Source of the DNA: a virus
Taxonomy: Duplodnaviria; Heunggongvirae; Uroviricota; Caudoviricetes
DNA length: 13,879 bases
Reading direction: 5' to 3' (one strand)
Virus record (IMG/VR): IMGVR_UViG_2703718788_000009
The notes under the pieces are model-generated. The model was not told the DNA's origin and ran no database searches. It saw nothing but the letters and a program-made list of their open reading frames with translations. The number at the start of each line of letters is the position of its first letter. The first letter of the stretch is position 1. Positions 309 to 13,879 of the stretch are shown here, piece by piece. Made by a program: the position numbers and the translations under genes.

Positions 309-2438
309 ATGGCAATGAAGGAAGTCGCCAGACTAACAAACGTTATTTACTGGGATTCTGATAAATCCTCCTGGCGAAAAGAAGTTAAACGGCTTGAGGA
401 TTATAAAAAATCCTGGAAGAAAGCCACCGACGATATTGCTAAAGCTGATTTTAAGTCTAATCAGGCTGTGCTCAGAACACAAAGAACACGCGCTAAGGTG
501 GAAGAGCAGATCGCCAGAGCACAGAAGAAACAACGTGCTCAGGCTGTCAGCCGTCTGACCGGAGGCAATAATCCGGAGCTCTCCTCTATGCGCAAGTTCT
601 ATCAGCAGCAAGCCAGAGAAGCCGCCAGACAACAAAAACTGTTAGATCGTAGTGTTGGAGATGTTCAGCACAGAAAAGCACGTGTAGGGGCCAACAGTGC
701 ACGAATCAGCAGCATGTTTGATGGCTCTCTGGTTGCTCAGTTCCAATCCAGAATTCAGAGAGTTAATGCTGATTATGCTAAAGGGGCTATCAACCTGCAG
801 ACCTATAATCAGAAAATGGCCCGACTCAGAGCTGAAATGAAGATGGCATCTAGAGATGCCACCACCTTTCAAGGCAAGCTAGATAAACTGGCAGCAGGTG
901 CGAGCAAGGTGCATAACAATATCGGCAAGCTTAACAGTGCTTTAGGCAAGATAGCCATTGGCCTGACCGCTGCGGGATGGGGTATTCAGAGAGCTGTCAG
1001 CAGTGCTATGAGCGCTCAATCTGACCATAACTCAGCCTATTATGGTTTGCTTGCTCAGAACAAGGATGATAAAGCCAAGACTGACCAACAGATGGCTTTT
1101 ATCGACAGAATCTCTAACGATTATGGGATGGATCAGCGTGAGGCTGAAGGCGGCTTTATGCGCTTTGCTGCAGCCACACCGAACGTAAAAGAGGGTGATA
1201 AACAGGCTCTCTTTGAGGCTATGGCTATTAAAGGTCGCTCAGTGGGTGCTACTGCGGACCAACAGAACAGGGCTATCGTTGCACTAGGGCAGATCTATAG
1301 CAAGGGCGGTCGAGTGTATGCGGAAGAGCTTAAGGGCCAACTTTCTGAAGCCCTGGCAGGCTCTCAGGTAGATTTCACCCGTGCGGCTATCGATGCCGGA
1401 ATCATCAAGAAAGAGGAAGAATTTAATAAAGCCCTTGAAGATGGCAAGATCACCATGGACAAGCTTCTTCCCTCTCTGGTGAAAATTTGGGGTGCTGCAA
1501 AAGAAACTGACGCTTTTGCTAAATCCATGCAGCAGCCAGAGGTGGCACTGCAGAGAATGAGCAACCAGTTTTTTAAACTAAAGCAATCCTTTATGGGTGT
1601 TGTTGATCCAACTGATAACGTTATTACCCTTTCTGAATCCCTGATCTACATCTTCGAAGACTTATCATCAATTTTCAGCGGCTCAGGTGAAGATGCCAAA
1701 TCACTGGGGGTTATGCTGGGTGAGGCAATGGATACAGTTTACACCCGTGCAGTTTGGGCTATTTGGTGGATTAAGAAGATCGCTAAAGAAATCGGTGAGA
1801 TGTTCAATCTGACCGCACAGGATGCAGGAAGTTGGATAGGCACAATTGTTACCGCTATCATGGGCCTGAAGGTTGCTGGAAGCGTGGCAGGCATGGTGGG
1901 CGGCCTTATCTCTATGCTGTGGAAGCTTGGATCAGCGATCAAGGCTTTATTAGTTGGTGGCGGTGTTGGTGATATCAGCACTGGGGGCACACCAGGTAAG
2001 GGCAAACCAGGTAAAGGCGGTTTAATCGGGAAAGTAGGCAGACTGGGAAGGTTTGCAGGTCCGGCTGCAGTTATTGCTACCGGATTCGATATTGCTAATG
2101 GTCTGGATGCATACTGGCAGAATCCTGATAATCAGCGACAGGAAGGAGTTAAACACCCGGAATGGCTAACCAGCATAGTTAATGGTGCTTCTAGCTTCCT
2201 CGGCCTTGATTATCGTCTCGATGCAGGACGCTACATTACCAGACCAACACCGACGGGTGGAATGGCTATTCAGAATGGTGGCTATCAACCAGTTCAGGTA
2301 AATGTAGTTCCACAAGGTGAGATTTCCGGCAAATGGGAGATAACCATTGATGAGGGTGGAATTGCCAGGGTGATCCAGAAGGAAGTCAGCGATCAGTTGG
2401 ATTGGAAAGCCACACAGGAATCTAATCAGCTTTTCTAA
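309..2438 (+). CDS. phage tail tape measure protein (lambda gpH-like)
   Basis: 709-aa ORF with SD 'gaggt'. Charged, Ala/Gln/Lys-rich N-terminal half, two hydrophobic helices (WIGTIVTAIMGLKVAGSVAGMVGGLISMLW), then a Gly-rich segment (GGGVGDISTGGTPGKGKPGKGG). The segment EEFNKALEDGKIT resembles lambda gpH 'EELNKALKDGKIL', recalled from memory and not verified. Confidence 0.75.
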   Translation: MAMKEVARLTNVIYWDSDKSSWRKEVKRLEDYKKSWKKATDDIAKADFKSNQAVLRTQRTRAKVEEQIARAQKKQRAQAVSRLTGGNNPELSSMRKFYQQQAREAARQQKLLDRSVGDVQHRKARVGANSARISSMFDGSLVAQFQSRIQRVNADYAKGAINLQTYNQKMARLRAEMKMASRDATTFQGKLDKLAAGASKVHNNIGKLNSALGKIAIGLTAAGWGIQRAVSSAMSAQSDHNSAYYGLLAQNKDDKAKTDQQMAFIDRISNDYGMDQREAEGGFMRFAAATPNVKEGDKQALFEAMAIKGRSVGATADQQNRAIVALGQIYSKGGRVYAEELKGQLSEALAGSQVDFTRAAIDAGIIKKEEEFNKALEDGKITMDKLLPSLVKIWGAAKETDAFAKSMQQPEVALQRMSNQFFKLKQSFMGVVDPTDNVITLSESLIYIFEDLSSIFSGSGEDAKSLGVMLGEAMDTVYTRAVWAIWWIKKIAKEIGEMFNLTAQDAGSWIGTIVTAIMGLKVAGSVAGMVGGLISMLWKLGSAIKALLVGGGVGDISTGGTPGKGKPGKGGLIGKVGRLGRFAGPAAVIATGFDIANGLDAYWQNPDNQRQEGVKHPEWLTSIVNGASSFLGLDYRLDAGRYITRPTPTGGMAIQNGGYQPVQVNVVPQGEISGKWEITIDEGGIARVIQKEVSDQLDWKATQESNQLF

Positions 2439-2448
2439 TATTGTGATC

Positions 2449-2469
2449 TAAATCAATAAGTTAGCCTAA
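2449..2469. repeat. copy 1 of 20-bp repeat 'aaatcaataagttagcYtaa'
   Basis: Matches 8341..8360 at 19 of 20 positions; both copies lie downstream of the stop of a plus-strand gene. Confidence 0.7.
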
Positions 2470-2485
2470 CCGGATAAACTCCAGG

Positions 2486-2521
2486 CAAGAAAAAAGCCCC
2501 TAAGTGTTAACAAAGGGGCTC
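2486..2521. terminator. intrinsic terminator-like hairpin, strong on the minus strand, weaker on the plus strand
   Basis: Perfect 7-bp stem agcccct (2495..2501) / aggggct (2514..2520) with a 12-nt loop. The minus strand reads a U5 run after the stem; the plus strand is followed by a pyrimidine-rich 'cttctccggtatcctttt'. Confidence 0.5.
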
Positions 2522-2550
2522 TTCTCCGGTATCCTTTTGATGCGGGGCAA

Positions 2551-2598
2551 AACCTGCTAACAAAAATCAACCTCTCGCGAGACTAATGTTAGCAGGTT
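2551..2598. other. perfect 12-bp inverted repeat (aacctgctaaca / tgttagcaggtt) around a 24-nt loop that carries the 'caacctctcgc' motif
   Basis: Direct reverse-complement match within the ORF-free region between the convergent operons. Confidence 0.6.
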
Positions 2599-2939
2599 GC
2601 CGGAAGGTAAGTCAACTCCGGCCTATAAACCTTAAAGCGACTATAAAATTGCCCCGCCAATTGTGATGATCCGACCTTTGAGGCGGGTCCGGTGCCCAGG
2701 GGGTGCAGTGATGCACAAACCAGGCAACGATAAACAGGCTAACAGTGATAGCGGCGCTCAATCAGCGCACTAAATCCTAACCAGTCCGGGAAAGAGGCTG
2801 GCTCTATCGACCGCTCATGCACGGGACAATGCATACCTGATAAAGGATTCTCACAAGGGACCAATCGCGAGAAAAGAAGTGGAAAGGGGCTGATTTGTGG
2901 TGTATCACTACGGCCTCAAAAGAACACTATTGTCTTTTT

Positions 2940-3392
2940 TCAGCCTCTCCCAACATTTGACCAGTATTTGATTGCACCGATCAAATCATCATAGTGGCGC
3001 ATTGCATCATTGAAGCCTTTATAGCTTGCCCATTGTGGTGAAACTTTGTTATTGCTGAATTGCCCACTAATCAGGATAGTCTCCAAAATGTCGGCGTATC
3101 GCTTGCCAATTCGCTTTCTGACGGCCTCAGAGCTCCCACCCTTTACGATTGCATTAATCAGGGCTTTTGTGTGTCTCAGGCTCTCATAGAGCATTGCAGC
3201 GTGGGCAGATTCCATAAAGGAGCGCTTAGGCAGATCACCCCACCCCTCAGAATGGATAGCCGCCAGTGTGGCGTAATTCAGGCCGCTATAGTGTTTCCCG
3301 TCATCCCAGCCAACCGCTACACCTTCCATCTGTGAGAGCTCTTTATGCAGCTTATCCATCATGCGCTTGTCTATGGTGCAACGGACTTTCAT
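2940..3392 (-). CDS. hypothetical protein, possibly virion morphogenesis or head-tail joining
   Basis: 150-aa ORF whose ATG overlaps the upstream gene's stop in an ATGA arrangement (translational coupling). It is the last gene of the minus-strand structural operon. The functional guess rests on context only. Confidence 0.5.
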   Translation of the reverse strand: MKVRCTIDKRMMDKLHKELSQMEGVAVGWDDGKHYSGLNYATLAAIHSEGWGDLPKRSFMESAHAAMLYESLRHTKALINAIVKGGSSEAVRKRIGKRYADILETILISGQFSNNKVSPQWASYKGFNDAMRHYDDLIGAIKYWSNVGRG

Positions 3393-4168
3393 TTTGTAGC
3401 ATCCTTGGCAAACTTGGCCTGCCTTTGCTGTTTCCAGGCGCTATCAGCTGCGTCATAGTTGCCGCCGTTTTCCTCTAACAACGTGTTAAAATCTTTAGTC
3501 TTAGCCGATGGGGTGTTGGTTGAGTTCCCTACGTTGCTATTCTTCTCAGCACTGTTAACAGCACCCTTTTGCTGTGTTTTGTTCACCTTCTTGCTGTTAG
3601 TGAAGACTCCGGCATTTTCGACCATCTTCACCTTGAAGGTGCGGAATTCTTCAAAGGTGCAATCAATAGTGATGCAGTCACCAGAGGAAGAGCTACGCTT
3701 AACTTCACATTTCGTCATGATGAAGTTCTCAAGGAGTCCGGCATCTTCACTTACCAGGCTAACAAGCTGGCGCTTGTCTCTCATTTCCATAAGTGCCTGA
3801 ACAGCGGCGGCAGGGCGCATAGATTCACGGGGATTATCTGGATCAGTGTTCCGGTCAATGTAGTTCTCTTTCCGGATGATATGAGGAGAAGAGGTAACAA
3901 TACCCGTAAAGCTGACAGATTTATCTTTAATGACGGCATGGTCTGACATGGTGGTGCCATCCTCGACCGCATAGCTCGATTTCTCAACAGGGAACGAATA
4001 GCTGACATCAGAGATAGAGTCAAAGAAGATAGCCACGTTATCGGTATAGTTGAAGCCATCCATTATATTTTTGTTTTGTGAATATCCCCCACACATAACA
4101 GTGAATGCAGGAGATCTCGATTCAGCTTGTTTTGCAGCTGTCAGAGCATCACTAGCCATATTAAACAT
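3389..4168 (-). CDS. hypothetical protein, possibly a virion structural component
   Basis: 259-aa ORF. A GGAGG sits 1 nt before the first ATG and about 10 nt before the second ATG (4159), so the true start is probably 4159 (MASDALT...). Ser/Thr/Asn-rich, with a Lys/Asn-rich low-complexity C-terminus. Confidence 0.55.
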   Translation of the reverse strand: MFNMASDALTAAKQAESRSPAFTVMCGGYSQNKNIMDGFNYTDNVAIFFDSISDVSYSFPVEKSSYAVEDGTTMSDHAVIKDKSVSFTGIVTSSPHIIRKENYIDRNTDPDNPRESMRPAAAVQALMEMRDKRQLVSLVSEDAGLLENFIMTKCEVKRSSSSGDCITIDCTFEEFRTFKVKMVENAGVFTNSKKVNKTQQKGAVNSAEKNSNVGNSTNTPSAKTKDFNTLLEENGGNYDAADSAWKQQRQAKFAKDATK

Positions 4169-4548: not shown

Positions 4549-4595
4549 ATGAGTCCTTCCAGGACCTTAGCTAAAGCTAAGCCCTTTGGGTCTGT
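4549..4595. repeat. 47-bp repeat, copy B
   Basis: See copy A (57..103). Lies between the capsid-gene terminator and the next minus-strand gene. Confidence 0.85.
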
Positions 4596-4602
4596 GGATA
4601 AT

Positions 4603-4663
4603 AAAAAAGGGAAGAGGGAAAGACCTATCCCCGATCTCTCACCTCTTCCCTTTGCTTTTATTT
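4603..4663. terminator. bidirectional rho-independent terminator downstream of the capsid gene
   Basis: 9-bp stem gggaagagg (4609..4617) / cctcttccc (4642..4650) with a 24-nt loop; flanked by A6 (4603..4608, a U6 run on the minus strand) and 'tttgcttttattt' (4651..4663). Confidence 0.65.
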
Positions 4664-4679: not shown

Positions 4680-5729
4680 TTATTTAGCCTTGGCTTTTGC
4701 CAGAGCAGCGGCGGCGGCGTTTTTAACACTCACTTTAACCACAACTTCGGGCATCATGTTCATGAAAGCATAAGAGGATTCAACGAAGATTTCTCGTTTG
4801 GCTCTGGACTCTTCCATATACATGAAAGCTTCACGTGCAGCGCCGTTTGCAAGCTTCAGGTTGCGAGCGCAAGGGCCGAAAAATTGAGTATAAACGCCCA
4901 CCATATCGCCTAACGCATGCGGCTGGAACTGTGGGACCAGATAAGCAGTATTCTCTGGCAGACTATCCATTTGCACCACACGCAGAGCTAAGCCTGGAAT
5001 GCGGAAAGTCGGGAAGCCCGGCAGAATATCCTCAGGGAACATCAGACCTTTATCAGTGATATTCTGATTGCCGAACAACAGCACTTTTCGCAACAGTTCA
5101 TCAGTCTGAATTGCAGCAAAGAGCTCAGCACGGCAGAACAGGGTGAAACCACGCAGAGCGCGAACGACACCACGCTGTTTAACCTTGCTCAGCGCAACCA
5201 GGTCCTGCAGCTGTTTAAGGATATCTTTAGCTAAATCCACTTCTGAGGTGGTTTGCTGTGCGCCCAGCAGTTCGCACACATTCAGTTCTTTACCCTTGGT
5301 GAGGATAATTTTGTTCTCAAAGAGAGCAAGCTGGCGTGCTTCTTCATGGGTCTGGCGTAAGCCTTCACCAAGCTGAATAACACGACGAGCGGTTACAGAC
5401 TCTAAATTCTCTTCGGAATCTTTGCCCGGAACACGGATACCCTGCCAGTCAGAAGGATAAATAGCACTTGATGCGGCAGTGAATGCCATATCACCCGTGC
5501 CCGTTTCACGCTCATCTGCGGTAATGGTAGCCATCTGTTCACCGTAGCGCGGATACTGACCGAAAGCGGTTTGTTTCACCTGGCGAACTTTGTCATATTC
5601 AAATTTAAAGGTATTGCACAGAGCAGTAGTGTTGAAGATATCCATTGCTGAAATAATCTGGTTATCCAGCGGGATGTCTTTAATCAAGCCACACAGATCG
5701 CGGACTTCGAATTCTTTTTTCATCTCCAA
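4680..5729 (-). CDS. major capsid protein (lambda gpE-like)
   Basis: The likely start is the ATG at 5723 with AAGGAGG 6 nt upstream; the track start at 5729 is TTG. The segment SLPENTAYLV and the C-terminal 'REIFVESSYAFMNMMPEVVVKVSV' resemble lambda gpE 'FLPDNTMVLG' and 'REFTMIQSAPLMLLADPDEFVSV', recalled from memory. About 347 aa, preceded by a small beta-rich protein. Confidence 0.7.
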   Translation of the reverse strand: MEMKKEFEVRDLCGLIKDIPLDNQIISAMDIFNTTALCNTFKFEYDKVRQVKQTAFGQYPRYGEQMATITADERETGTGDMAFTAASSAIYPSDWQGIRVPGKDSEENLESVTARRVIQLGEGLRQTHEEARQLALFENKIILTKGKELNVCELLGAQQTTSEVDLAKDILKQLQDLVALSKVKQRGVVRALRGFTLFCRAELFAAIQTDELLRKVLLFGNQNITDKGLMFPEDILPGFPTFRIPGLALRVVQMDSLPENTAYLVPQFQPHALGDMVGVYTQFFGPCARNLKLANGAAREAFMYMEESRAKREIFVESSYAFMNMMPEVVVKVSVKNAAAAALAKAKAK

Positions 5730-5734
5730 CCTCC

Positions 5735-6070
5735 TTATTGTGCAACACGCAAATCGCCATTGCTGGCAGCGATAACAGCGGCTAAGCCTTCTTTATCCAC
5801 GTAGGCCGGATTGATATAACAGCCCTTGTTGGCAACAACGATAAAAGCATCACCAACCTCAGCACGTTCTACAACCAGCAGCGGAGTTTTACCGGTGTGC
5901 GTTGCTTTAACGAAGGTCTCAACCTCGCCAGCCTCAGTCACCACAACAACAGTGCCAGCCGGAATCTCAGCTTTAACTTTGTTTTTAATTTCAACGTCGC
6001 GAATACTAAATTGCTCATCTGCGGCGTATGAAATGATGTGTCCGCGTGTGCGGATAGTCATATCTCTCAT
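5735..6070 (-). CDS. putative head decoration or auxiliary capsid protein (by position)
   Basis: 111-aa ORF whose TAA stop overlaps the capsid gene's SD. Val/Thr/Gly-rich and beta-like. The assignment is positional (lambda D-E order), not from sequence identity. Confidence 0.45.
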   Translation of the reverse strand: MRDMTIRTRGHIISYAADEQFSIRDVEIKNKVKAEIPAGTVVVVTEAGEVETFVKATHTGKTPLLVVERAEVGDAFIVVANKGCYINPAYVDKEGLAAVIAASNGDLRVAQ

Positions 6071-6195
6071 TTGATCACCTGCGATTTAAATTAACTCCCC
6101 TCAAAGAGTTCCGGTATAACCTCTCAAACCACGACAGGCTCGGGCCGAAAAGTTATGCCGGAAATCTAAAGGGAAATTGATACAAGGAGAGGGAG

Positions 6196-6225
6196 ATAGC
6201 CCCGCACCGTCCAAGCGGGGGCTAT
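6196..6225. other. GC-rich stem-loop in the capsid-operon leader
   Basis: atagccccgc / gcgggggctat pairs as a roughly 10-bp stem with one bulge and a 9-nt loop. No U-tract on either strand, so not a classic terminator. Confidence 0.35.
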
Positions 6226-6548
6226 TCCACATGGGGAAACCGACAACAGTCGGATGATAGTTCACAGTATGGGTTACGGTTACTAGAGAGCACTATCACG
6301 AAAGGCACTCCCCCGAATCAGTTCAGGCTGCGGTCACATCAGCGGGGAAATACCTTTCGGGATAGCTACCCACACAGAAAACCCGCAAAAGAAAACTGTG
6401 TGGATAACTAGCCCAATAGGAGAATTAATCGACCACTCAACGATGATCAGGGTAGTGTTATTTATAAGGCGGCACCGCTACCTGGTCGCCTTTACTTTGG
6501 AGGAAAATACGGCAAATCACTTTCACCATTGATTTACGGTATATGTAT

Positions 6549-6577
6549 ATTATATCAGTATTCTCTCAAATTGTCAA
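6549..6577 (-). promoter_or_regulatory. perfect-consensus sigma70 promoter (TTGACA-N17-TATAAT) on the minus strand, directed at the capsid operon
   Basis: The reverse complement of 6549..6577 reads TTGACA atttgagagaatactga TATAAT, with an AT-rich stretch upstream. Predicted start near 6540, about 470 nt before the ATG at 6070. Confidence 0.6.
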
Positions 6578-6841
6578 CACCCTGATTATATAAATTCTAA
6601 TAATTAGCGTAGTAACGGTATTTTCAGACTGCTATCAATCCCATCAATACGTCACCCCCACCCTTTAGATGCATACATCCGACCTACTTTGTAGGCTTGG
6701 CGTACTGCCAAGGTCGAAGCTATGCGACTCATATCTATCACCACTTTATAAAGCTTGATAGATATCTTTTGATCAATATCAATGTTTTCCGGGGATTTAC
6801 CCGGCTATAGTTCGAATCAAGGAAGGGGAGCATTGATAGAG

Positions 6842-6890: not shown

Positions 6891-6933
6891 CCAACCGAAC
6901 AAACAAATCAACTTCTCGCAAAAGGTGATAGTT

Positions 6934-7056
6934 ATGGGTATCAAGAACAGTGCCAGCGCATGGCAAAAGGCCAGGTTTCATCACCCACACATTGTTAAGG
7001 CAATTGAGGTGGTTGGAGTGTTAGCCCTGATGTTAGCTCTGTGTGTGGAGGTGTGA
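6934..7056 (+). CDS. small hydrophobic peptide (41 aa), first ORF of a plus-strand module
   Basis: ATG at 6934 with SD 'aaggtga'; MGIKNSASAWQKARFHHPHIVKAIEVVGVLALMLALCVEV, with a C-terminal transmembrane-like helix. A second 26-aa peptide (7058..7138) follows with SD GGAGG. Below the ORF-track threshold. Confidence 0.3.
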   Translation: MGIKNSASAWQKARFHHPHIVKAIEVVGVLALMLALCVEV

Positions 7057-7157
7057 GATGGGCAAAGGAGGCAAAGCATTTTTAATAGGTCTGGCAGTCT
7101 TAGATTTTGTATTAATCATCATTGAGCGGAGTTTATGAACAGCATTGAGAGGAGTTT

Positions 7158-7418
7158 ATGACGGGGGCTAAAGATATCAGGAGATTGAGGGAAGAGCTGA
7201 TAGCTGAAATTAAAGCTAAGGCAAAGCAAATGGAGATAGCCGCACAAATGGATGTAGCGGAACAGATGTACAAGATGGTTGAAGAGGGAACACCACGGCA
7301 GGTTATAGCAAAAACATTTGGTGTGGGGATCGCCACCGTGCACAGAAGGCTGAAAGCCTATGCCGACTACCACAATATCGAGAGAAAGGAGGATGGGAGA
7401 TTTAAGAAGAATAAATAG
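7158..7418 (+). CDS. small DNA-binding protein with a helix-turn-helix motif
   Basis: 86-aa ORF with SD 'gagagg'. The motif TPRQVIAKTFGVGIATVHRRLK looks like an HTH of the resolvase or IS3 OrfA type; the N-terminus looks coiled-coil. Confidence 0.6.
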   Translation: MTGAKDIRRLREELIAEIKAKAKQMEIAAQMDVAEQMYKMVEEGTPRQVIAKTFGVGIATVHRRLKAYADYHNIERKEDGRFKKNK

Positions 7419-7475
7419 TAGGAACAGTCCAACAGGTTATTAACTAAATTCAACTTCTCGCAAAGAGGTACCATT

Positions 7476-8162
7476 ATGTTTAAAGGTCTTGTTGTTACGC
7501 TATTGGCTTGCATTGTATTTGGTCCATGGGTGTTAGTAATTGCTTTACCTATATTGCTGATCATGAGCTTAGGGAATGATATTAAAAAGCTGCAAAAGCT
7601 GCATGCACAATATAAGGAGAATCCCGGCGCGTTCATGGTAAGTCTGGTTATAGTCGCGGGGCTTATTGGATGGGTGTATTTCTCCCTCCCCACAGGAAAT
7701 ACAACTGCAAATGTAGAAGAGGCCGCAGTGGTAGAGGAAAAAGCCAACAAAGGATTCAGATTTATTGTTGGTGTGGATAGCCCAGTATATGGCCCTGAAG
7801 CTGTGGATCCTGCAATGGTGCATGCCTGGTTATGGAACAGAACGGAGAAAGGTAGCTGCAATCAACTAAAAGCGAGCGCCAACATAGAAGAGGAAGGAGA
7901 TACATTTTTCGCATGGTGTAAAGATATCAAAGGCAATGATAGGTGGTTTACCATTACCAATATTGTAGGTGTTTCCCGTTCACTAATGAATCACCCTGAG
8001 GCTAAGAATCCGCTAACAGGTGTCCGATTAAAAGATGGCCCAATATGGATCGATTTATACGGAACACAAATCACTGAGGGCGTGAACAGCGATATCCAGG
8101 ATAAGCTGAAAGACATAAATAATCAGTATGGTGCGATTGTTGAAACCTCTCCTATGAAATAA
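7476..8162 (+). CDS. membrane protein with two N-terminal transmembrane helices and a roughly 150-aa C-terminal domain, possibly superinfection exclusion
   Basis: 228-aa ORF with SD 'agagg'. Hydrophobic segments at about residues 5..30 and 53..70, separated by a Lys-rich loop. Function is a hypothesis. Confidence 0.6.
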   Translation: MFKGLVVTLLACIVFGPWVLVIALPILLIMSLGNDIKKLQKLHAQYKENPGAFMVSLVIVAGLIGWVYFSLPTGNTTANVEEAAVVEEKANKGFRFIVGVDSPVYGPEAVDPAMVHAWLWNRTEKGSCNQLKASANIEEEGDTFFAWCKDIKGNDRWFTITNIVGVSRSLMNHPEAKNPLTGVRLKDGPIWIDLYGTQITEGVNSDIQDKLKDINNQYGAIVETSPMK

Positions 8163-8340: not shown

Positions 8341-8360
8341 AAATCAATAAGTTAGCTTAA
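8341..8360. repeat. copy 2 of 20-bp repeat 'aaatcaataagttagcYtaa'
   Basis: See 2449..2469. Confidence 0.7.
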
Positions 8361-9465: not shown

Positions 9466-9520
9466 TCAAAATCAAGTCACATTAGAGTCAAATCAAGTCA
9501 AATCAGATGCAATCAATCCC
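9466..9520. repeat. cluster of 'aatcaagtca'-type direct repeats
   Basis: gtcaaaatcaagtca, gtcaaatcaagtca, aatcagatgca, aatcaatccc in tandem. Confidence 0.6.
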
Positions 9521-9521
9521 C

Positions 9522-9586
9522 CACCTGTTGGGATTTCCCACATGTTCAACCATACACAGGAGCTAACCTGTTGGGATTTCCTACAC
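9522..9586. repeat. two copies of 'acctgttgggatttccYaca', 45 bp apart
   Basis: 9522..9541 and 9567..9586 are near-identical. Confidence 0.7.
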
Positions 9587-9639
9587 CTCTTGCACATACC
9601 CCGGAAGATTTTTCCGGTGTGCCATCTTTGCAGGCTCCA

Positions 9640-9807
9640 ACCTGTGAAGAATTTTCACACCTGTAAATCCATACAGCACGGTAAAAACTACCGCACCACC
9701 TGTCAAAATATTTTACTACCCCACCAATAATACGGCCCATACCTGTAAAATATTTTTACTACTACCTGTCAAAATCTTTTACTACTACCTGTAAAAATAT
9801 TTGACAC
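9640..9807. repeat. iteron array with ACCTGT core (part of the candidate replication origin)
   Basis: ACCTGT occurs at 9640, 9659, 9698, 9741, 9764 and 9787, plus 9523 and 9566 in the preceding repeat. The last four sit in units of about 23 bp, 'acctgt(c)aaaatattttactac', three of them directly tandem. Confidence 0.7.
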
Positions 9808-9839
9808 TAATAGATAAAGTAACAGACCACACAATAGAT

Positions 9840-9865
9840 CCCCCCCTAACCCCCCCCCCAGGGGG
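9840..9865. repeat. homopolymer tracts C7-TAA-C10-A-G5, bracketed by GATC sites
   Basis: Read directly: gatcccccccctaacccccccccaggggg, with GATC at 9837..9840 and 9876..9879. Confidence 0.8.
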
Positions 9866-9902
9866 AATGGGGAGGGATCAGAGAGTGGGGAAGGTTTATC
9901 AA

Positions 9903-10027
9903 TATATCAAATTGATATACTTAGCTAGATGTATCAATTAATACACTTAAAGGTGAGCAATGCTTAGCTAGATGTATCAATCCGATACACTTAGAATATT
10001 CTAGATGTATCAATTAATACACTTAAA
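9903..10027. repeat. 17-bp perfect palindrome followed by three direct repeats of about 30 bp
   Basis: Palindrome tatatcaa-a-ttgatata at 9903..9919; repeats 'ctagatgtatcaat..atacactta' at 9920..9951, 9963..9994 and 9999..10027. Confidence 0.75.
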
Positions 10028-10906
10028 TCACGTAACTTATTGTATTTATTAAGAAAAGTCATCTACCTATATATACTACTGATTCGCCTCCGCTCATCAT
10101 TAGTATGGTGTAACTGATTCATGCTTCGCTTACGCTCACATTCATCTACTTACACCCCCTTATCTGAATTGAACATTCCCGTCCAATCCAGCTAAGAGAA
10201 TTGATTGAACATTACCTAACATCCGTTAGCTAACATTCTAATCAATTAACTACTTAAACACTTCCACACCTTCCGGTGGTGCCAAGTAACCTGGCATGGT
10301 GGGAAAAGATTCTGCCGTTTTAGGTAGAATTGATTTCCCACAAATAGTAAGTGTCGGCCCTTCAATGTCACTCTCCTATGAGGGGAGAGATGACGGGCCT
10401 CCTGTGTGGGTGAGTATCGGAGCAGTCTGTGAAGTATGAGCAGGCTGTGAGATACGCTACTGTATATCTGCGTAGAACAGCCTCCGCTGTTTACGCTCTT
10501 TGTGTGGTCCGGCGAATGCGTCAGCATGAGGCCCACATGTGGACCGCTGCCGAAAGCTTGCCAGCGCCGGAAGGAGGCAGCAAAGAGTCTCCCGCGCTCA
10601 TGTGTGGGCGTATACGTAAGATATACATTCATAAATCCAATCCTAGGCCCCTAAATGGCCTTCTGGCTGCATTAACCTGTGTGAGTAGTGCAATTGCATT
10701 ACCTGATGCTTAAATCGCGTTGTAGGGCCTCTCATAGAGAATTTAACTATCAAGATAAAAATTGCAGATCGGTCTATTGACAATCTTATTGCATAAATGC
10801 TATAAGTTATTCTGGTTTTGACACGGTAGGGGCCATTAATAATGCTTACCCCCTTTGCTGTGGACTTGCTTGCACCTATAGCACACCTAAATGATAATAA
10901 TTCTCA

Positions 10907-10970: not shown

Positions 10971-11120
10971 GTGGAAATTACTGATGCAATAGCGATCATC
11001 AACCTGGCTGTACTGTGGTGCGGTGTTGCCTACATAGCCGGAGTAACTGCAATAGACAATCTTGAAGAAAAAATGATAGATAAATACAAAAAGATTGTTG
11101 ACAATTTGACGAATGTTTGA
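10971..11120 (+). CDS. small membrane protein (49 aa, GTG start), possibly holin-like or toxin-like
   Basis: GGAGG 5 nt upstream of the GTG; VEITDAIAIINLAVLWCGVAYIAGVTAIDNLEEKMIDKYKKIVDNLTNV has one transmembrane-like helix and a charged C-terminal tail. Absent from the ORF track. Confidence 0.3.
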   Translation: MEITDAIAIINLAVLWCGVAYIAGVTAIDNLEEKMIDKYKKIVDNLTNV

Positions 11121-11126
11121 TAAAAT
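11098..11126 (+). promoter_or_regulatory. strong sigma70 promoter (TTGACA-N17-TAAAAT) for the leader and Rep operon
   Basis: -35 at 11098..11103, a 17-nt spacer, -10 at 11121..11126. Confidence 0.6.
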
Positions 11127-11176
11127 ATAAAGCATAGGGTAATTCTCAGCATGTGAATTTTCCTTAAACAGACTAG

Positions 11177-13564: not shown

Positions 13565-13879
13565 ATGAATATTGAAGAAATGATAGTTGAATTCGAAGAG
13601 GGTGATTTCCTGGAAGATGGGGAGTTTAAATACTCCCGTTTTAAACAGGCGTTATTTAGCAGCGATGATAAACCCCACGTTAGTGATCTTAATGACGATG
13701 ATTTATGTCGTTGGGTATGCACCCGCTTATATGAGGATGGAAAATATACAGGCCAAAACTTTCCAAATCTCTATTTCAAAGCACAAACATTTGAGGAAGG
13801 GCAAAGAGTGAAAAACCTGATCGATAAAATGCTTTCAGCCGGATATTTGCATGCTGAAAGCAAGCGCCATTATATTTTT
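13565..13879 (+). CDS. 5' part of the junction-spanning ORF (acidic protein; continues at 1..120 if circular)
   Basis: ATG at 13565 with SD 'gagagga' 7 nt upstream; open to the window end. The overlapping track ORF 13587..13811 is in another frame and looks spurious. Confidence 0.5.
   Translation, partial: MNIEEMIVEFEEGDFLEDGEFKYSRFKQALFSSDDKPHVSDLNDDDLCRWVCTRLYEDGKYTGQNFPNLYFKAQTFEEGQRVKNLIDKMLSAGYLHAESKRHYIF
13859..13879. other. 21-nt terminal redundancy identical to 1..21, marking a circular junction or assembly overlap
   Basis: 'agcaagcgccattatattttt' occurs at both ends of the window. Confidence 0.9.

Follow-up and report, generated by a model that had tools for sequence, protein, structure and literature searches.

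The window analysed here (13,879 nucleotides) is the whole of a circular, complete E. coli "plasmid" of 13.86 kb (about 13.9 kb) that has phage capsid and tail genes aboard. Two operons converge in it, the TMP operon on the plus strand and the capsid/Dit/Neck1 operon on the minus strand. Between the stop of the TMP gene at 2438 and the end of a 150-aa Neck1-like gene at 2940 lies an ORF-free gap (2439..2939), which carries no annotation in RefSeq. A gap of 500 to 780 nt is present in all the 13-15 kb relatives that we found, even at 42 % Dit protein identity. Behind the rV5-like homologue of the 150-aa gene, other genes follow at once and there is no comparable gap. Strains carrying such an element include E. 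coli 190 (NZ_CP020521) and E275a (pE275a_13).

Exact-pattern scanning of JGI metagenomes yielded two additional full-length elements, and the same type of scan over IMG/VR and the GTDB representative genomes gave no match. The 150-aa protein returned nothing when used as a query for related loci in viral contigs, and when the gap was compared by blastn with 50,697 phage records, chance matches alone came up. Searching the literature under accessions and under topics brought up no account of this 13-15 kb plasmid family.

Conservation and coding content of the gap

The core of the gap is a block of 448 nt on the minus strand (2487..2934), running from GACAAUAG to the U-tract of a terminator. 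It is the most conserved long stretch of the element, with 98.3-99.8 % identity per 100 nt compared to about 95 % in the flanking genes; divergence is about 1 % in 2501-2900 and 4-5 % in the neighbouring genes. Conservation falls off right past the terminator and, at the other end, just before GACAATAG. The block begins 6 nt past the stop codon at 2940 and no consistent promoter precedes it. The sequence-only reading had set its proposals for this region against the case of an unconserved and unstructured stretch; the analysis found a region that is conserved and predicted to be structured.

The same reading had described an ORF-free convergence zone of about 500 bp, and this description holds: all ORFs in the gap are at most 49 aa long with TTG or GTG starts, and none is kept in frame among 15 relatives. 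Reassigning stops under an alternative genetic code opened no long ORF in the gap and did not raise the coding density. We nonetheless considered hidden small protein genes, for example a 49-aa ORF on the minus strand (2612-2761), which has a hydrophobic N-terminus, or a 26-aa ORF on the plus strand (2586-2666). In the L019/L024 clade a real-looking 49-aa gene with a promoter and a Shine-Dalgarno sequence (SD) does fill the 3' part of the gap. In the window, however, the TTG/GTG starts have no SD, the start of the 49-aa ORF is lost through a TT to GA change in five relatives, and the 26-aa ORF shows solely non-synonymous changes plus a frameshift in L013. Indels of 1 nt in relatives, at about 2549, 2699 and 2872, shift every reading frame of the gap. 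On the indels and lost starts we rejected small proteins in the gap, which we hold to be a very improbable explanation of its conservation.

Searching the whole window against Rfam 15 gave no match at the gathering threshold and none that was convincing at E up to 10. The best sub-threshold score, to ctRNA_p42d (RF00489; 23.6 bits against a gathering threshold of 50), spans the terminator part only and reflects a terminator-like hairpin followed by a U-run, not membership of that family. Scans of the window for tRNA and tmRNA found none.

RNA structure and covariation on the minus strand

The minus-strand fold of 2439-2939 has a free energy of -176 kcal/mol (z = -5.4), compared to z = -3.8 for the plus strand. 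In an alignment of 11 sequences from five clades, partly inspected by hand, compensatory changes occur in 18 of the 81 predicted pairs versus 6.4 +/- 1.3 in shuffles (the observed count was reached in 0 of 500) and 1-5 in slid controls; the clades behind this covariation that are independent of one another number only about five. Applied to just the close family, RNAalifold was uninformative for long-range pairs because those sequences are too similar. The alignment holds 157 G.U cells versus 11 A.C cells, and 96.2 % of cells pair on the minus strand versus 79.2 % on the plus strand. The G.U pairs favour the minus strand.

The larger part of the block is a 5' structured module, from 2934 to about 2668 on the minus strand, that is found in all five clades. 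Near its start, the strand UUUGAGGC (2913..2920) is predicted to pair, as a pseudoknot or switch, with the loop CGCCUCAAA of hairpin Hd (2674..2690, stem GACC/GGUC). All 11 sequences can form these 8 bp, and from clade to clade the pairing covaries (G-C to U-A). The stem of Hd occurs as GACC/GGUC, UCCC/GGGA, GGAC/GUCC and GGGC/GCCC around an unchanged loop. Hairpin Ha (2779..2805; CCAGCC...GGACUGG, loop UCUUUCCC) shows compensatory changes in three pairs, CG to UA/AU, AU to UA and GC to AU (helix 6). The neighbouring hairpin Hb (2754..2768; GCGCU/AGCGC) is missing in some clades; it has a CG to UA compensatory change in three sequences and a variable loop (AA to TC; helix 7). In the window the structural operon's stop codon immediately precedes the 5' module, which is therefore probably made as the 3' UTR of that operon. 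Its covariation argues that it is an RNA conserved separately, beyond a passive 3' extension. In the L019/L024 clade the module is inverted, on the strand opposite to the Dit operon, and the 49-aa ORF stands in place of the predicted small RNA described below.

At the other end of the block is an intrinsic terminator hairpin with a U-tract on the minus strand (2489..2526; arms 2489-2501/2514-2526), visible on the plus strand as an A-run at 2490-2495. Its G+C-rich stem of 13-14 bp is followed by UUUUUUCUU on the minus strand, is kept in all clades and shows G.U to A-U variation among relatives (helix 15). A simple terminator scan did not list this hairpin, as its loop exceeds 8 nt, and the minus-strand fold shows it as a 14-bp stem. 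The structure had been proposed to terminate in both directions. Only in the minus-strand direction does the hairpin have the features of a good intrinsic terminator; the bidirectional description is no more than weakly true, the plus-strand tail being CUCUUCUCC. As to the suggested cis element coupling the two convergent operons, the shared hairpin may help end TMP transcription in the window, but many relatives have an additional 49-nt hairpin insert after TMP. Terminator scan and fold agree with the earlier claim that the minus-strand operon has no terminator between its stop at 2940 and 2526.

Also as claimed, the gap contains a perfect 12-bp inverted repeat, AACCTGCTAACA/TGTTAGCAGGTT (2551-2562/2587-2598), complementary at 12 of 12 positions across a 24-nt spacer; when the gap was dinucleotide-shuffled 300 times, perfect inverted repeats reached 10 bp at most. 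On the minus strand the repeat forms the stem of a predicted hairpin (2551..2598), and its 24-nt loop contains the 'caacctctcgc' motif (2567-2578). The arms are swapped in the L016 clade (GCUGUUAG/CUAACAGC) with the loop CGCGAGAGGUU retained (helix 13), an exchange that fits RNA pairing and does not fit a double-stranded DNA operator. A 9-bp G+C-rich stem (2542-2550/2649-2657) would close a 3' multibranch in the long transcript; its U-A, U.G and C-G haplotypes all pair on the minus strand, with A.C mismatches on the plus strand.

A predicted trans-acting small RNA and its targets

The last 90 nt or so of the block (2487..2578, minus strand) have the layout of a small RNA (sRNA): a seed, a central stem-loop and the terminator. 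In the predicted fold the 5' end is free and the terminator stem is 14 bp (z = -3.7), and L021 and L025 share this layout. A sigma-70-like promoter is predicted directly upstream (2586..2615, minus strand; TTGACT-18-(TGc)TAACAT), and consensus matches occur at the homologous place in L021 (TTGACT-16-TGtTAGTAT) and in L025 (TTGCCG-17-TATACT). The seed GCGAGAGGUUGAUUU (2564..2578, minus strand), complement of the 'caacctctcgc' motif, would form the 5' end of the sRNA; it is unpaired in the predicted fold and the similarity to the targets stops at the predicted +1.

The seed is complementary to TCAACTTCTCGC, which two plus-strand genes have just ahead of their ribosome-binding sites (6908 and 7450). 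Predicted target 1, AAATCAACTTCTCGC (6905..6919, plus strand), ends 14 nt before the ATG at 6934 of a 40-aa membrane-peptide ORF, the first of the plus-strand regulatory operon, with a hydrophobic C-terminus and a length of about 30 aa in L021. The match is 15 nt long with one G.U pair and is the top-ranked duplex (z = -5.2). Predicted target 2, AATTCAACTTCTCGC (7447..7461, plus strand), lies in the conserved leader of a variable cargo gene, with a 12-nt match ending 14 nt before the ATG at 7476 (z = -4.8). The two targets rank first and third among all duplex partners. The motif TCAACYTCTCGC occurs three times in the window against 0 expected, and each full-length close relative has exactly three copies, all on one strand; apart from this motif, exact 11-mers that the core shares with the remainder of the element, repeated or complementary, do not rise above chance. 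The leader copy at 7450 is invariant ahead of at least four different, unrelated cargo genes.

If seed and leaders pair, they would be expected to change together in relatives, and comparison of the clades bears this out for L025/L026 and more weakly for L016/L021. The L025/L026 clade has a different seed (CUCUGCUAAGGAAUUA), whose perfect complement of 16 nt in L025 and 14 nt in L026 abuts the SD. These complements belong to two different cargo genes, and the L025 duplex reaches z = -8.8. The L016/L023 seed GCGAGAGGUU matches AACCUCUCGC ahead of the first small ORF; in L023 a further site precedes the cargo gene. Complementarity in the L016/L021 clade is short (10 nt) and unremarkable when duplexes are ranked; of the site in the cargo leader, L021 has a degraded form (CTCCCGC) and L016 none.

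We propose an sRNA of about 90 nt whose transcription starts at a sigma-70-type promoter of its own (2615-2586) and stops at the intrinsic terminator (2526-2489). The unpaired 5' end of this sRNA would pair in trans with the two plus-strand leaders 4.3-4.9 kb away, and the most likely effect would be a block of translation initiation, keeping the regulatory and cargo operon quiet while the element is a plasmid. In the long transcript the seed would instead sit in the loop of the 12-bp hairpin. An sRNA started at the internal promoter would be without the 5' arm of that hairpin, and thus the conservation of the hairpin would need the long transcript too.

Among the options offered by the sequence-only reading, a small RNA derived from a 3' UTR comes closest. 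The part that stands concerns the window, where the last 90 nt or so, with their promoter-like site, seed and complements, lie downstream of a coding sequence and use the common terminator, and where the upstream 330 nt or so adjoin the operon stop. The part that does not stand concerns these upstream nucleotides, which form a separate covarying module on the other strand in the L019/L024 clade, so that the 3'-UTR arrangement is not found there. MicL and DapZ are 3'-UTR-derived sRNAs with an internal promoter that lies inside the coding sequence. They resemble the predicted sRNA in sharing the terminator of the upstream operon, in having their own promoter in the 3' region and in carrying the seed at the 5' end; here, in contrast, stop codon and promoter are some 330 nt apart, and this interval is a structured RNA with a conservation of its own.

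Alternative explanations and known systems

Taken together, we think it probable that the gap is a strongly conserved, unannotated non-coding RNA locus of two modules on the minus strand, the 3' module being a trans-acting sRNA. A simpler account would have the gap as a mere long structured 3' UTR and terminator stabilising the structural-operon mRNA, and the 12-nt motif as a shared plus-strand cis signal, such as an anti-SD or a duplicated leader element, and not an antisense seed. The position of the block just past the stop codon with no consistent promoter before it would fit, as would the ability of the leader motif to pair in cis with its own SD and the similarity of the three motif copies, which reaches about 10 nt upstream of the core. 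Stabilising hairpins, however, do not need a divergence as low as about 1 % over 440 nt. This account also sits poorly with the joint change of seed and leader in L025/L026, with promoter-like sites conserved directly upstream of the seed in three clades, and with the L019/L024 strand arrangement, and we judge it unlikely.

It is also conceivable that selection acts on DNA, with the motif copies as operators for an element-encoded regulator and/or the block as a pac/cos site, a single-strand origin or a priming signal in the form of folded single-stranded DNA. Searches of the element turned up neither a terminase nor a recognisable pac site, the 5' module is found both ways round, the motif covers +1 to +15 of the predicted promoter, a possible operator place, and Watson-Crick covariation is strand-symmetric, all of which would suit such a role. 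The swapped arms of the 12-bp repeat are nevertheless an exchange that a dimeric DNA-binding protein would not tolerate, and the many G.U pairs, with series from G.U to A-U or G-C, are mismatches on the other strand. Iteron-like repeats and a likely origin lie elsewhere (9470-10030), and the block has no similarity to any phage among the 50,697 records; a DNA-level element therefore appears quite unlikely. A highly improbable option is the attachment or recombination site that had been suggested earlier. Some clades encode a serine resolvase, one element record is a head-to-tail trimer, and the 5' module is inverted in one clade. Yet the core sequence is confined to these small circular replicons, and 5,426 complete E. 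coli genomes contain it at no chromosomal place and show no junction; no recombinase was found in the window, whose clade is without one; and no dif/cer-like core was seen. Attachment and res sites are not known for covarying stems over 440 nt, and the compensatory changes in the stems indicate pairing within an RNA, not a site in double-stranded DNA.

The proposed two-module RNA locus has partial parallels in known systems. The CI RNA of satellite P4 and the C4 RNA of P1/P7 (Rfam C4) are immunity antisense RNAs of a satellite and a plasmid-prophage. A stem-loop in them shows a short sequence complementary to two leader sites of the regulatory operon, which is kept off; the RNAs are processed out of the target transcript and act by premature termination or a block of ant translation. 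The predicted sRNA shares with them the small size, the short stem-loop sequence and the two complementary leader sites, and differs in that its gene is on the opposite strand, about 4.3 kb from the targets. We rejected membership of the P4 CI/P1 C4 group on these opposite-strand targets and on the missing Rfam match to C4. Type I toxin-antitoxin systems with a trans-encoded antitoxin RNA (tisB/istR-1, zorO/orzO, shoB/ohsC) offer another likeness, as one of the predicted targets is a leader in front of a small hydrophobic peptide ORF, where 10-15 nt ahead of the SD are complementary. Type I antitoxin genes normally adjoin the toxin gene, whereas here the predicted RNA is not beside the 40-aa putative-toxin ORF, a variable cargo gene is the other target, and the search of Pfam gave no toxin family for the 40-aa ORF.

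The closest functional parallel may be SviR, a trans-acting sRNA of the Vibrio cholerae phage satellite PLE (Dunham, Angermeyer & Seed, bioRxiv 10.1101/2022.04.08.487710). SviR is reported to be an sRNA of a phage-parasitic element that is conserved in all members and pairs in trans with the element's own transcripts. It has no sequence or Rfam relation to the gap locus. PLE is chromosomal, in contrast to the 13.9-kb circular replicon here, and SviR also targets helper-phage mRNAs and is not known to have a counterpart of the large 5' structured module. For the present element, a scan of the initial 50 kb of the Vequintavirinae phage A7_1 showed no excess of seed complements. If our reading is correct, this would be a second case, after PLE SviR, of a phage-satellite-like element ruling its own regulatory and cargo genes by a trans-acting sRNA, here with an E. 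coli host and a tiny extrachromosomal replicon. The conserved leader before an exchangeable cargo gene, together with a clade-specific seed, suggests a general design in which any gene inserted in the cargo slot would fall under RNA control by the element. Such control bears on the silencing of defence or anti-phage cargo until it is needed.

The sRNA model leaves unexplained the constraint on the 330 upstream nt and the L019/L024 inversion. More tentatively, we hypothesize that the 5' module is a new autonomous structured RNA class of about 270-400 nt, specific to the 13-15 kb plasmid-borne phage-satellite-like family, which, being inverted in one clade, would work independently of the genes around it. 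It might detect helper-phage infection or act on it, and the adjacent sRNA would then be its output arm; this is a possibility to which we give limited credence. The 5' strand of the module, UUUGAKGC, covaries with a local P1 strand and also with the Hd loop, which suggests that it forms a pseudoknot, switches conformation or joins molecules head to tail. With its strong constraint, clear covariation and no Rfam family, the 5' module is a concrete candidate for a new RNA family.

A constrained interval between converging operons

The gap at 2439-2939, between the converging tape measure protein (TMP) operon (plus strand) and capsid/Dit/Neck1 operon (minus strand), holds a feature that is real, unannotated and strongly constrained. 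The only ORFs in it are of at most 49 aa with TTG or GTG starts, and the RefSeq annotation places nothing there. The sequence-only reading had described a perfect 12-bp inverted repeat and a bidirectional terminator. The repeat is present at 2551-2562/2587-2598, and the longest perfect inverted repeat across shuffles of the gap is 10 bp. The terminator hairpin is found at 2489-2526 and is an intrinsic terminator on the minus strand (tail UUUUUUCUU), but the plus-strand tail (CUCUUCUCC) makes 'bidirectional' only weakly justified. The gap folds at -176 kcal/mol on the minus strand (z = -5.4), compared with z = -3.8 on the plus strand.

Among nine close relatives compared in 100-nt bins, identity is 98.3-99.8 % over 2501-2900, against about 95-96 % in the neighbouring genes, with much greater divergence in several segments. 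Across 15 aligned sequences variability jumps immediately beyond the terminator (below ~2475) and immediately ahead of GACAATAG (2934), and this rise at both edges delimits the conserved block to 2487-2934. The same alignment has 1-nt indels within the block at ~2549, 2699 and 2872. We considered and rejected a coding function or hidden small proteins, since each small ORF is without a start or frame in some relatives.

Searching with the Dit-like protein gave dozens of relatives (39-93 % identity), of which many are on 13-15 kb contigs. Related contigs L016, L017 and L019-L026 have a common layout, all with a 516-782-nt gap between converging operons, and the gap sequences of relatives are homologous to that of the window. 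L016, L021 and L023 are 77-80 % identical to the window across most of the 5' 300-330 nt of the gap; L017 and L025 have fewer blocks in common with it. In a 19-kb relative (L027/L028) Dit and TMP lie on the same strand without an intervening gap.

A predicted small RNA and its putative leader targets

The motif singled out by the sequence-only reading sits within the 24-nt loop of the 12-bp hairpin. Its core, TCAACYTCTCGC, has three plus-strand copies in the window (2567, 6908 and 7450; expected 0), and every full-length close relative likewise has exactly three. The two distant copies (6908 and 7450) stop 14 nt before ATGs with good Shine-Dalgarno (SD) sequences. The ATG at 6934 (plus strand) starts a 40-aa ORF with a hydrophobic C-terminus, the first of an operon that includes an 86-aa HTH protein, and the ATG at 7476 (plus strand) starts a 228-aa gene with at least three unrelated replacements in relatives, the leader being unchanged. 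The complement carried by the putative minus-strand RNA is GCGAGAGGUUGAUUU, and when duplexes were ranked across the element the two predicted target sites came first and third (z = -5.2 and -4.8). A predicted sigma-70-like promoter, TTGACT-18-(TGc)TAACAT at 2615-2586 (minus strand), places the start at ~2578-2579, the exact end of the similarity to the targets. Both L021 (TTGACT-16-TGtTAGTAT) and L025 (TTGCCG-17-TATACT) carry a homologous promoter-like site, and the predicted ~90-105-nt RNAs of the clades are built alike, with a free 5' end, a single stem-loop and a strong terminator. Comparison among relatives gives good support for reading this 3' module (~2578-2487, minus strand) as a predicted trans-acting sRNA.

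The free 5' end, or seed (2564-2578, minus strand), changes between clades together with its putative targets. The seed of L025 and L026, CUCUGCUAAGGAAUUA, is unrelated to that of the window. In L025 a perfect 16-nt seed complement abuts the SD of a cargo gene encoding a T5orf172-domain protein, and this seed-leader duplex is the outstanding one on that element (z = -8.8); L026, with the same seed, has a 14-nt complement ahead of a different cargo gene. The seed of L016, L021 and L023, GCGAGAGGUU, matches AACCUCUCGC ahead of the first small hydrophobic ORF. The second site, in the cargo leader, is present in L023, degraded in L021 and absent in L016, so the evidence in this clade is weaker.

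Repression by occlusion of the ribosome-binding region is the favoured mode of action; the L025 duplex overlaps the SD. Alternatively, as the window leader motif is also able to pair with its own SD, the sRNA could activate by freeing it.

Several observations concern these predicted target regions. The cargo slot (7476-8162) has a conserved leader and SD, and holds at least four unrelated genes in elements that are otherwise 92-97 % identical; the L025 cargo protein gives weak PADLOC PDC-S57 matches. A 20-nt repeat, AAATCAATAAGTTAGCYTAA, lies just outside the sRNA terminator (2450-2469) and again downstream of the cargo gene (8341-8360), a resembling sequence precedes the cargo leader in L021 and L023 (L021 ~2950-2965), and the repeat may be a cassette boundary. 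The tiny overlapping ORFs at 6934-7162 begin with the 40-aa peptide, followed by short peptides joined by ATGA overlaps; they include a 22-nt tandem repeat (7117-7161) and precede the 86-aa HTH_7 gene (7158-7418).

Predicted RNA structure and the 5' module

RNAalifold predicts 81 pairs on structure alignment A2 (11 sequences, five clades), with compensatory double changes in 18. Column shuffles give 6.4 +/- 1.3 such pairs and 0 of 500 reach 18, a control that is not a probability; sliding partners by 1-3 columns gives 1-5. The alignment represents only about five independent lineages. The best supported helices are hairpins Ha and Hb, the seed hairpin and the terminator. Ha (2805-2779) varies from CCAGCC/GGACUGG to CCUAUC/GAUAGG, CUUAUC/GAUAAG and CUUAAC/GUUAAG, and Hb from GCGC to GUGC/GCAC.

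The minus strand of the window is the one indicated, since G.U cells (157) outnumber A.C cells (11); paired cells are 96.2 % on this strand versus 79.2 % on the plus strand, a count biased by prediction of the structure on the minus strand. Support independent of this bias comes from the stem 2542-2550/2649-2657, whose haplotypes pair as U-A, U.G and C-G on the minus strand and leave A.C mismatches on the plus strand.

The 5' module (2934-~2668, minus strand) is a candidate new structured RNA. Invariant in all clades are GACAAUA, GAKGCCGU, UUAUCAGGUA, GCCUGUUUAUC and CGCMUCAA. Hairpin Hd (2690-2674) keeps its loop on a 4-bp stem of four forms (GACC/GGUC, UCCC/GGGA, GGAC/GUCC and GGGC/GCCC). 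An 8-bp pairing of the 5' strand UUUGAKGC (2920-2913) with the Hd loop GCMUCAAA is possible in 11 of 11 sequences and shows a G-C to U-A exchange between clades; the local partner of that strand, GCMUC ("P1"), also covaries. These covarying partners suggest a pseudoknot, a two-partner switch or intermolecular pairing. In related contigs L019 and L024 the whole 5' module is inverted with respect to Dit and TMP. In place of the sRNA module these contigs have a strong promoter (TTGTCT-17-TATAAT) with a basic 49-aa ORF (L019 4860-5051, L024 8620-8817), and they lack the 150-aa Neck1-like gene; this inversion and replacement point to the 5' module as an autonomous unit. It matched no Rfam family and no phage sequence and, the seed aside, no stretch of 11 nt or longer is complementary to other parts of the element. 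Within the sRNA body (2530-2555, minus strand), GCCCCGCAUCAAAAGG nearly repeats the Hd loop region seen in other clades (CCCCGCAUCAAAGGG in L025). Pairing of this stretch with bases 2913-2927, at the 5' end of the long RNA, is feasible, and it may have arisen by internal duplication or offer the 5' strand a third partner.

Other readings and the carrier element

A 3' UTR serving purely for stabilisation would leave unexplained the level of constraint, the conserved predicted promoter and the co-variation of seed and leader. A DNA-level site, such as an operator, pac site or single-strand origin, is disfavoured, and may yet apply to the 5' module. Between clades the arms of the seed hairpin are swapped (AACCUGCUAACA/UGUUAGCAGGUU versus GCUGUUAG/CUAACAGC) and the loop CGCGAGAGGUU is kept, an exchange that leaves RNA pairing intact, whereas the half-sites of a DNA operator would be reversed. 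The G.U pattern is likewise contrary to a DNA-level site, and the likely replication origin lies elsewhere (~9470-10030). The suggestion of an attachment site found no support: by megablast the element is never chromosomal in 5,426 complete E. coli genomes.

Judged by its predicted function, the 3' module resembles four known kinds of RNA. Three of them are the immunity RNAs CI (P4) and C4 (P1), 3'-UTR sRNAs with internal promoters and, as to the small-peptide target, Type I antitoxin RNAs. The fourth is SviR of the PLE satellite (10.1101/2022.04.08.487710). By sequence the 3' module belongs to none of the four.

Bases 1-21 are identical to 13859-13879, so the window represents a complete circular element of 13,858 bp. 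By megablast it occurs only as circular "plasmids" of small size (13.2-13.7 kb), found in 7 of the 5,426 genomes and in a few PLSDB records; one of these, RefSeq NZ_CP043822 (39.6 kb), is a head-to-tail trimer. The recognisable genes are phage structural genes: the tape measure protein (309-2438, plus strand), a 150-aa Neck1/tail-completion-like protein (2940-3392, minus), a Dit-like "baseplate" protein (3389-4168, minus) and an HK97-type major capsid protein (4680-5729, minus). Among phages, their closest counterparts are in Vequintavirinae and phiTE-like myoviruses (identity at most 49 % for the 150-aa protein), and neither portal nor terminase was detected on the element. That it is a plasmid-borne phage satellite is a reasonable guess only. 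We found no paper on this plasmid family.

The window and related loci L001-L009 and L011-L026 make up a family of circular E. coli/gut elements, 13-15 kb long and so far undescribed, that encode major capsid, tape measure, Dit-like and Neck1-like proteins (Vequintavirinae/phiTE-like) plus a Rep/HTH module; across the family, too, neither portal nor terminase was detected. Iteron-like direct repeats at 23-nt spacing lie at 9695-9808, with more at 9917-10027. Fold z-scores over 9469-10030 (structure signal to ~10560) reach -7.7, stronger than anywhere else on the element, in sequence variable among relatives; the repeats and fold scores probably mark a replication origin at ~9470-10030. In 6070-6591 (minus strand) a consensus promoter, TTGACA-17-TATAAT (reverse complement of 6546-6591), would give the capsid operon a ~475-nt leader, which at 6300-6500 is 99.2-99.6 % conserved and structured (z ~ -4) and may be a second constrained RNA. 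A near-identical promoter/operator sequence at 11084-11129 (plus strand) faces the Rep operon. Finally, a 55-nt direct repeat (57-111 and 4551-4605, 89 % identical, with palindromes inside) has one copy that precedes the TMP-side genes and a second that falls between an 84-aa gene and the capsid gene.
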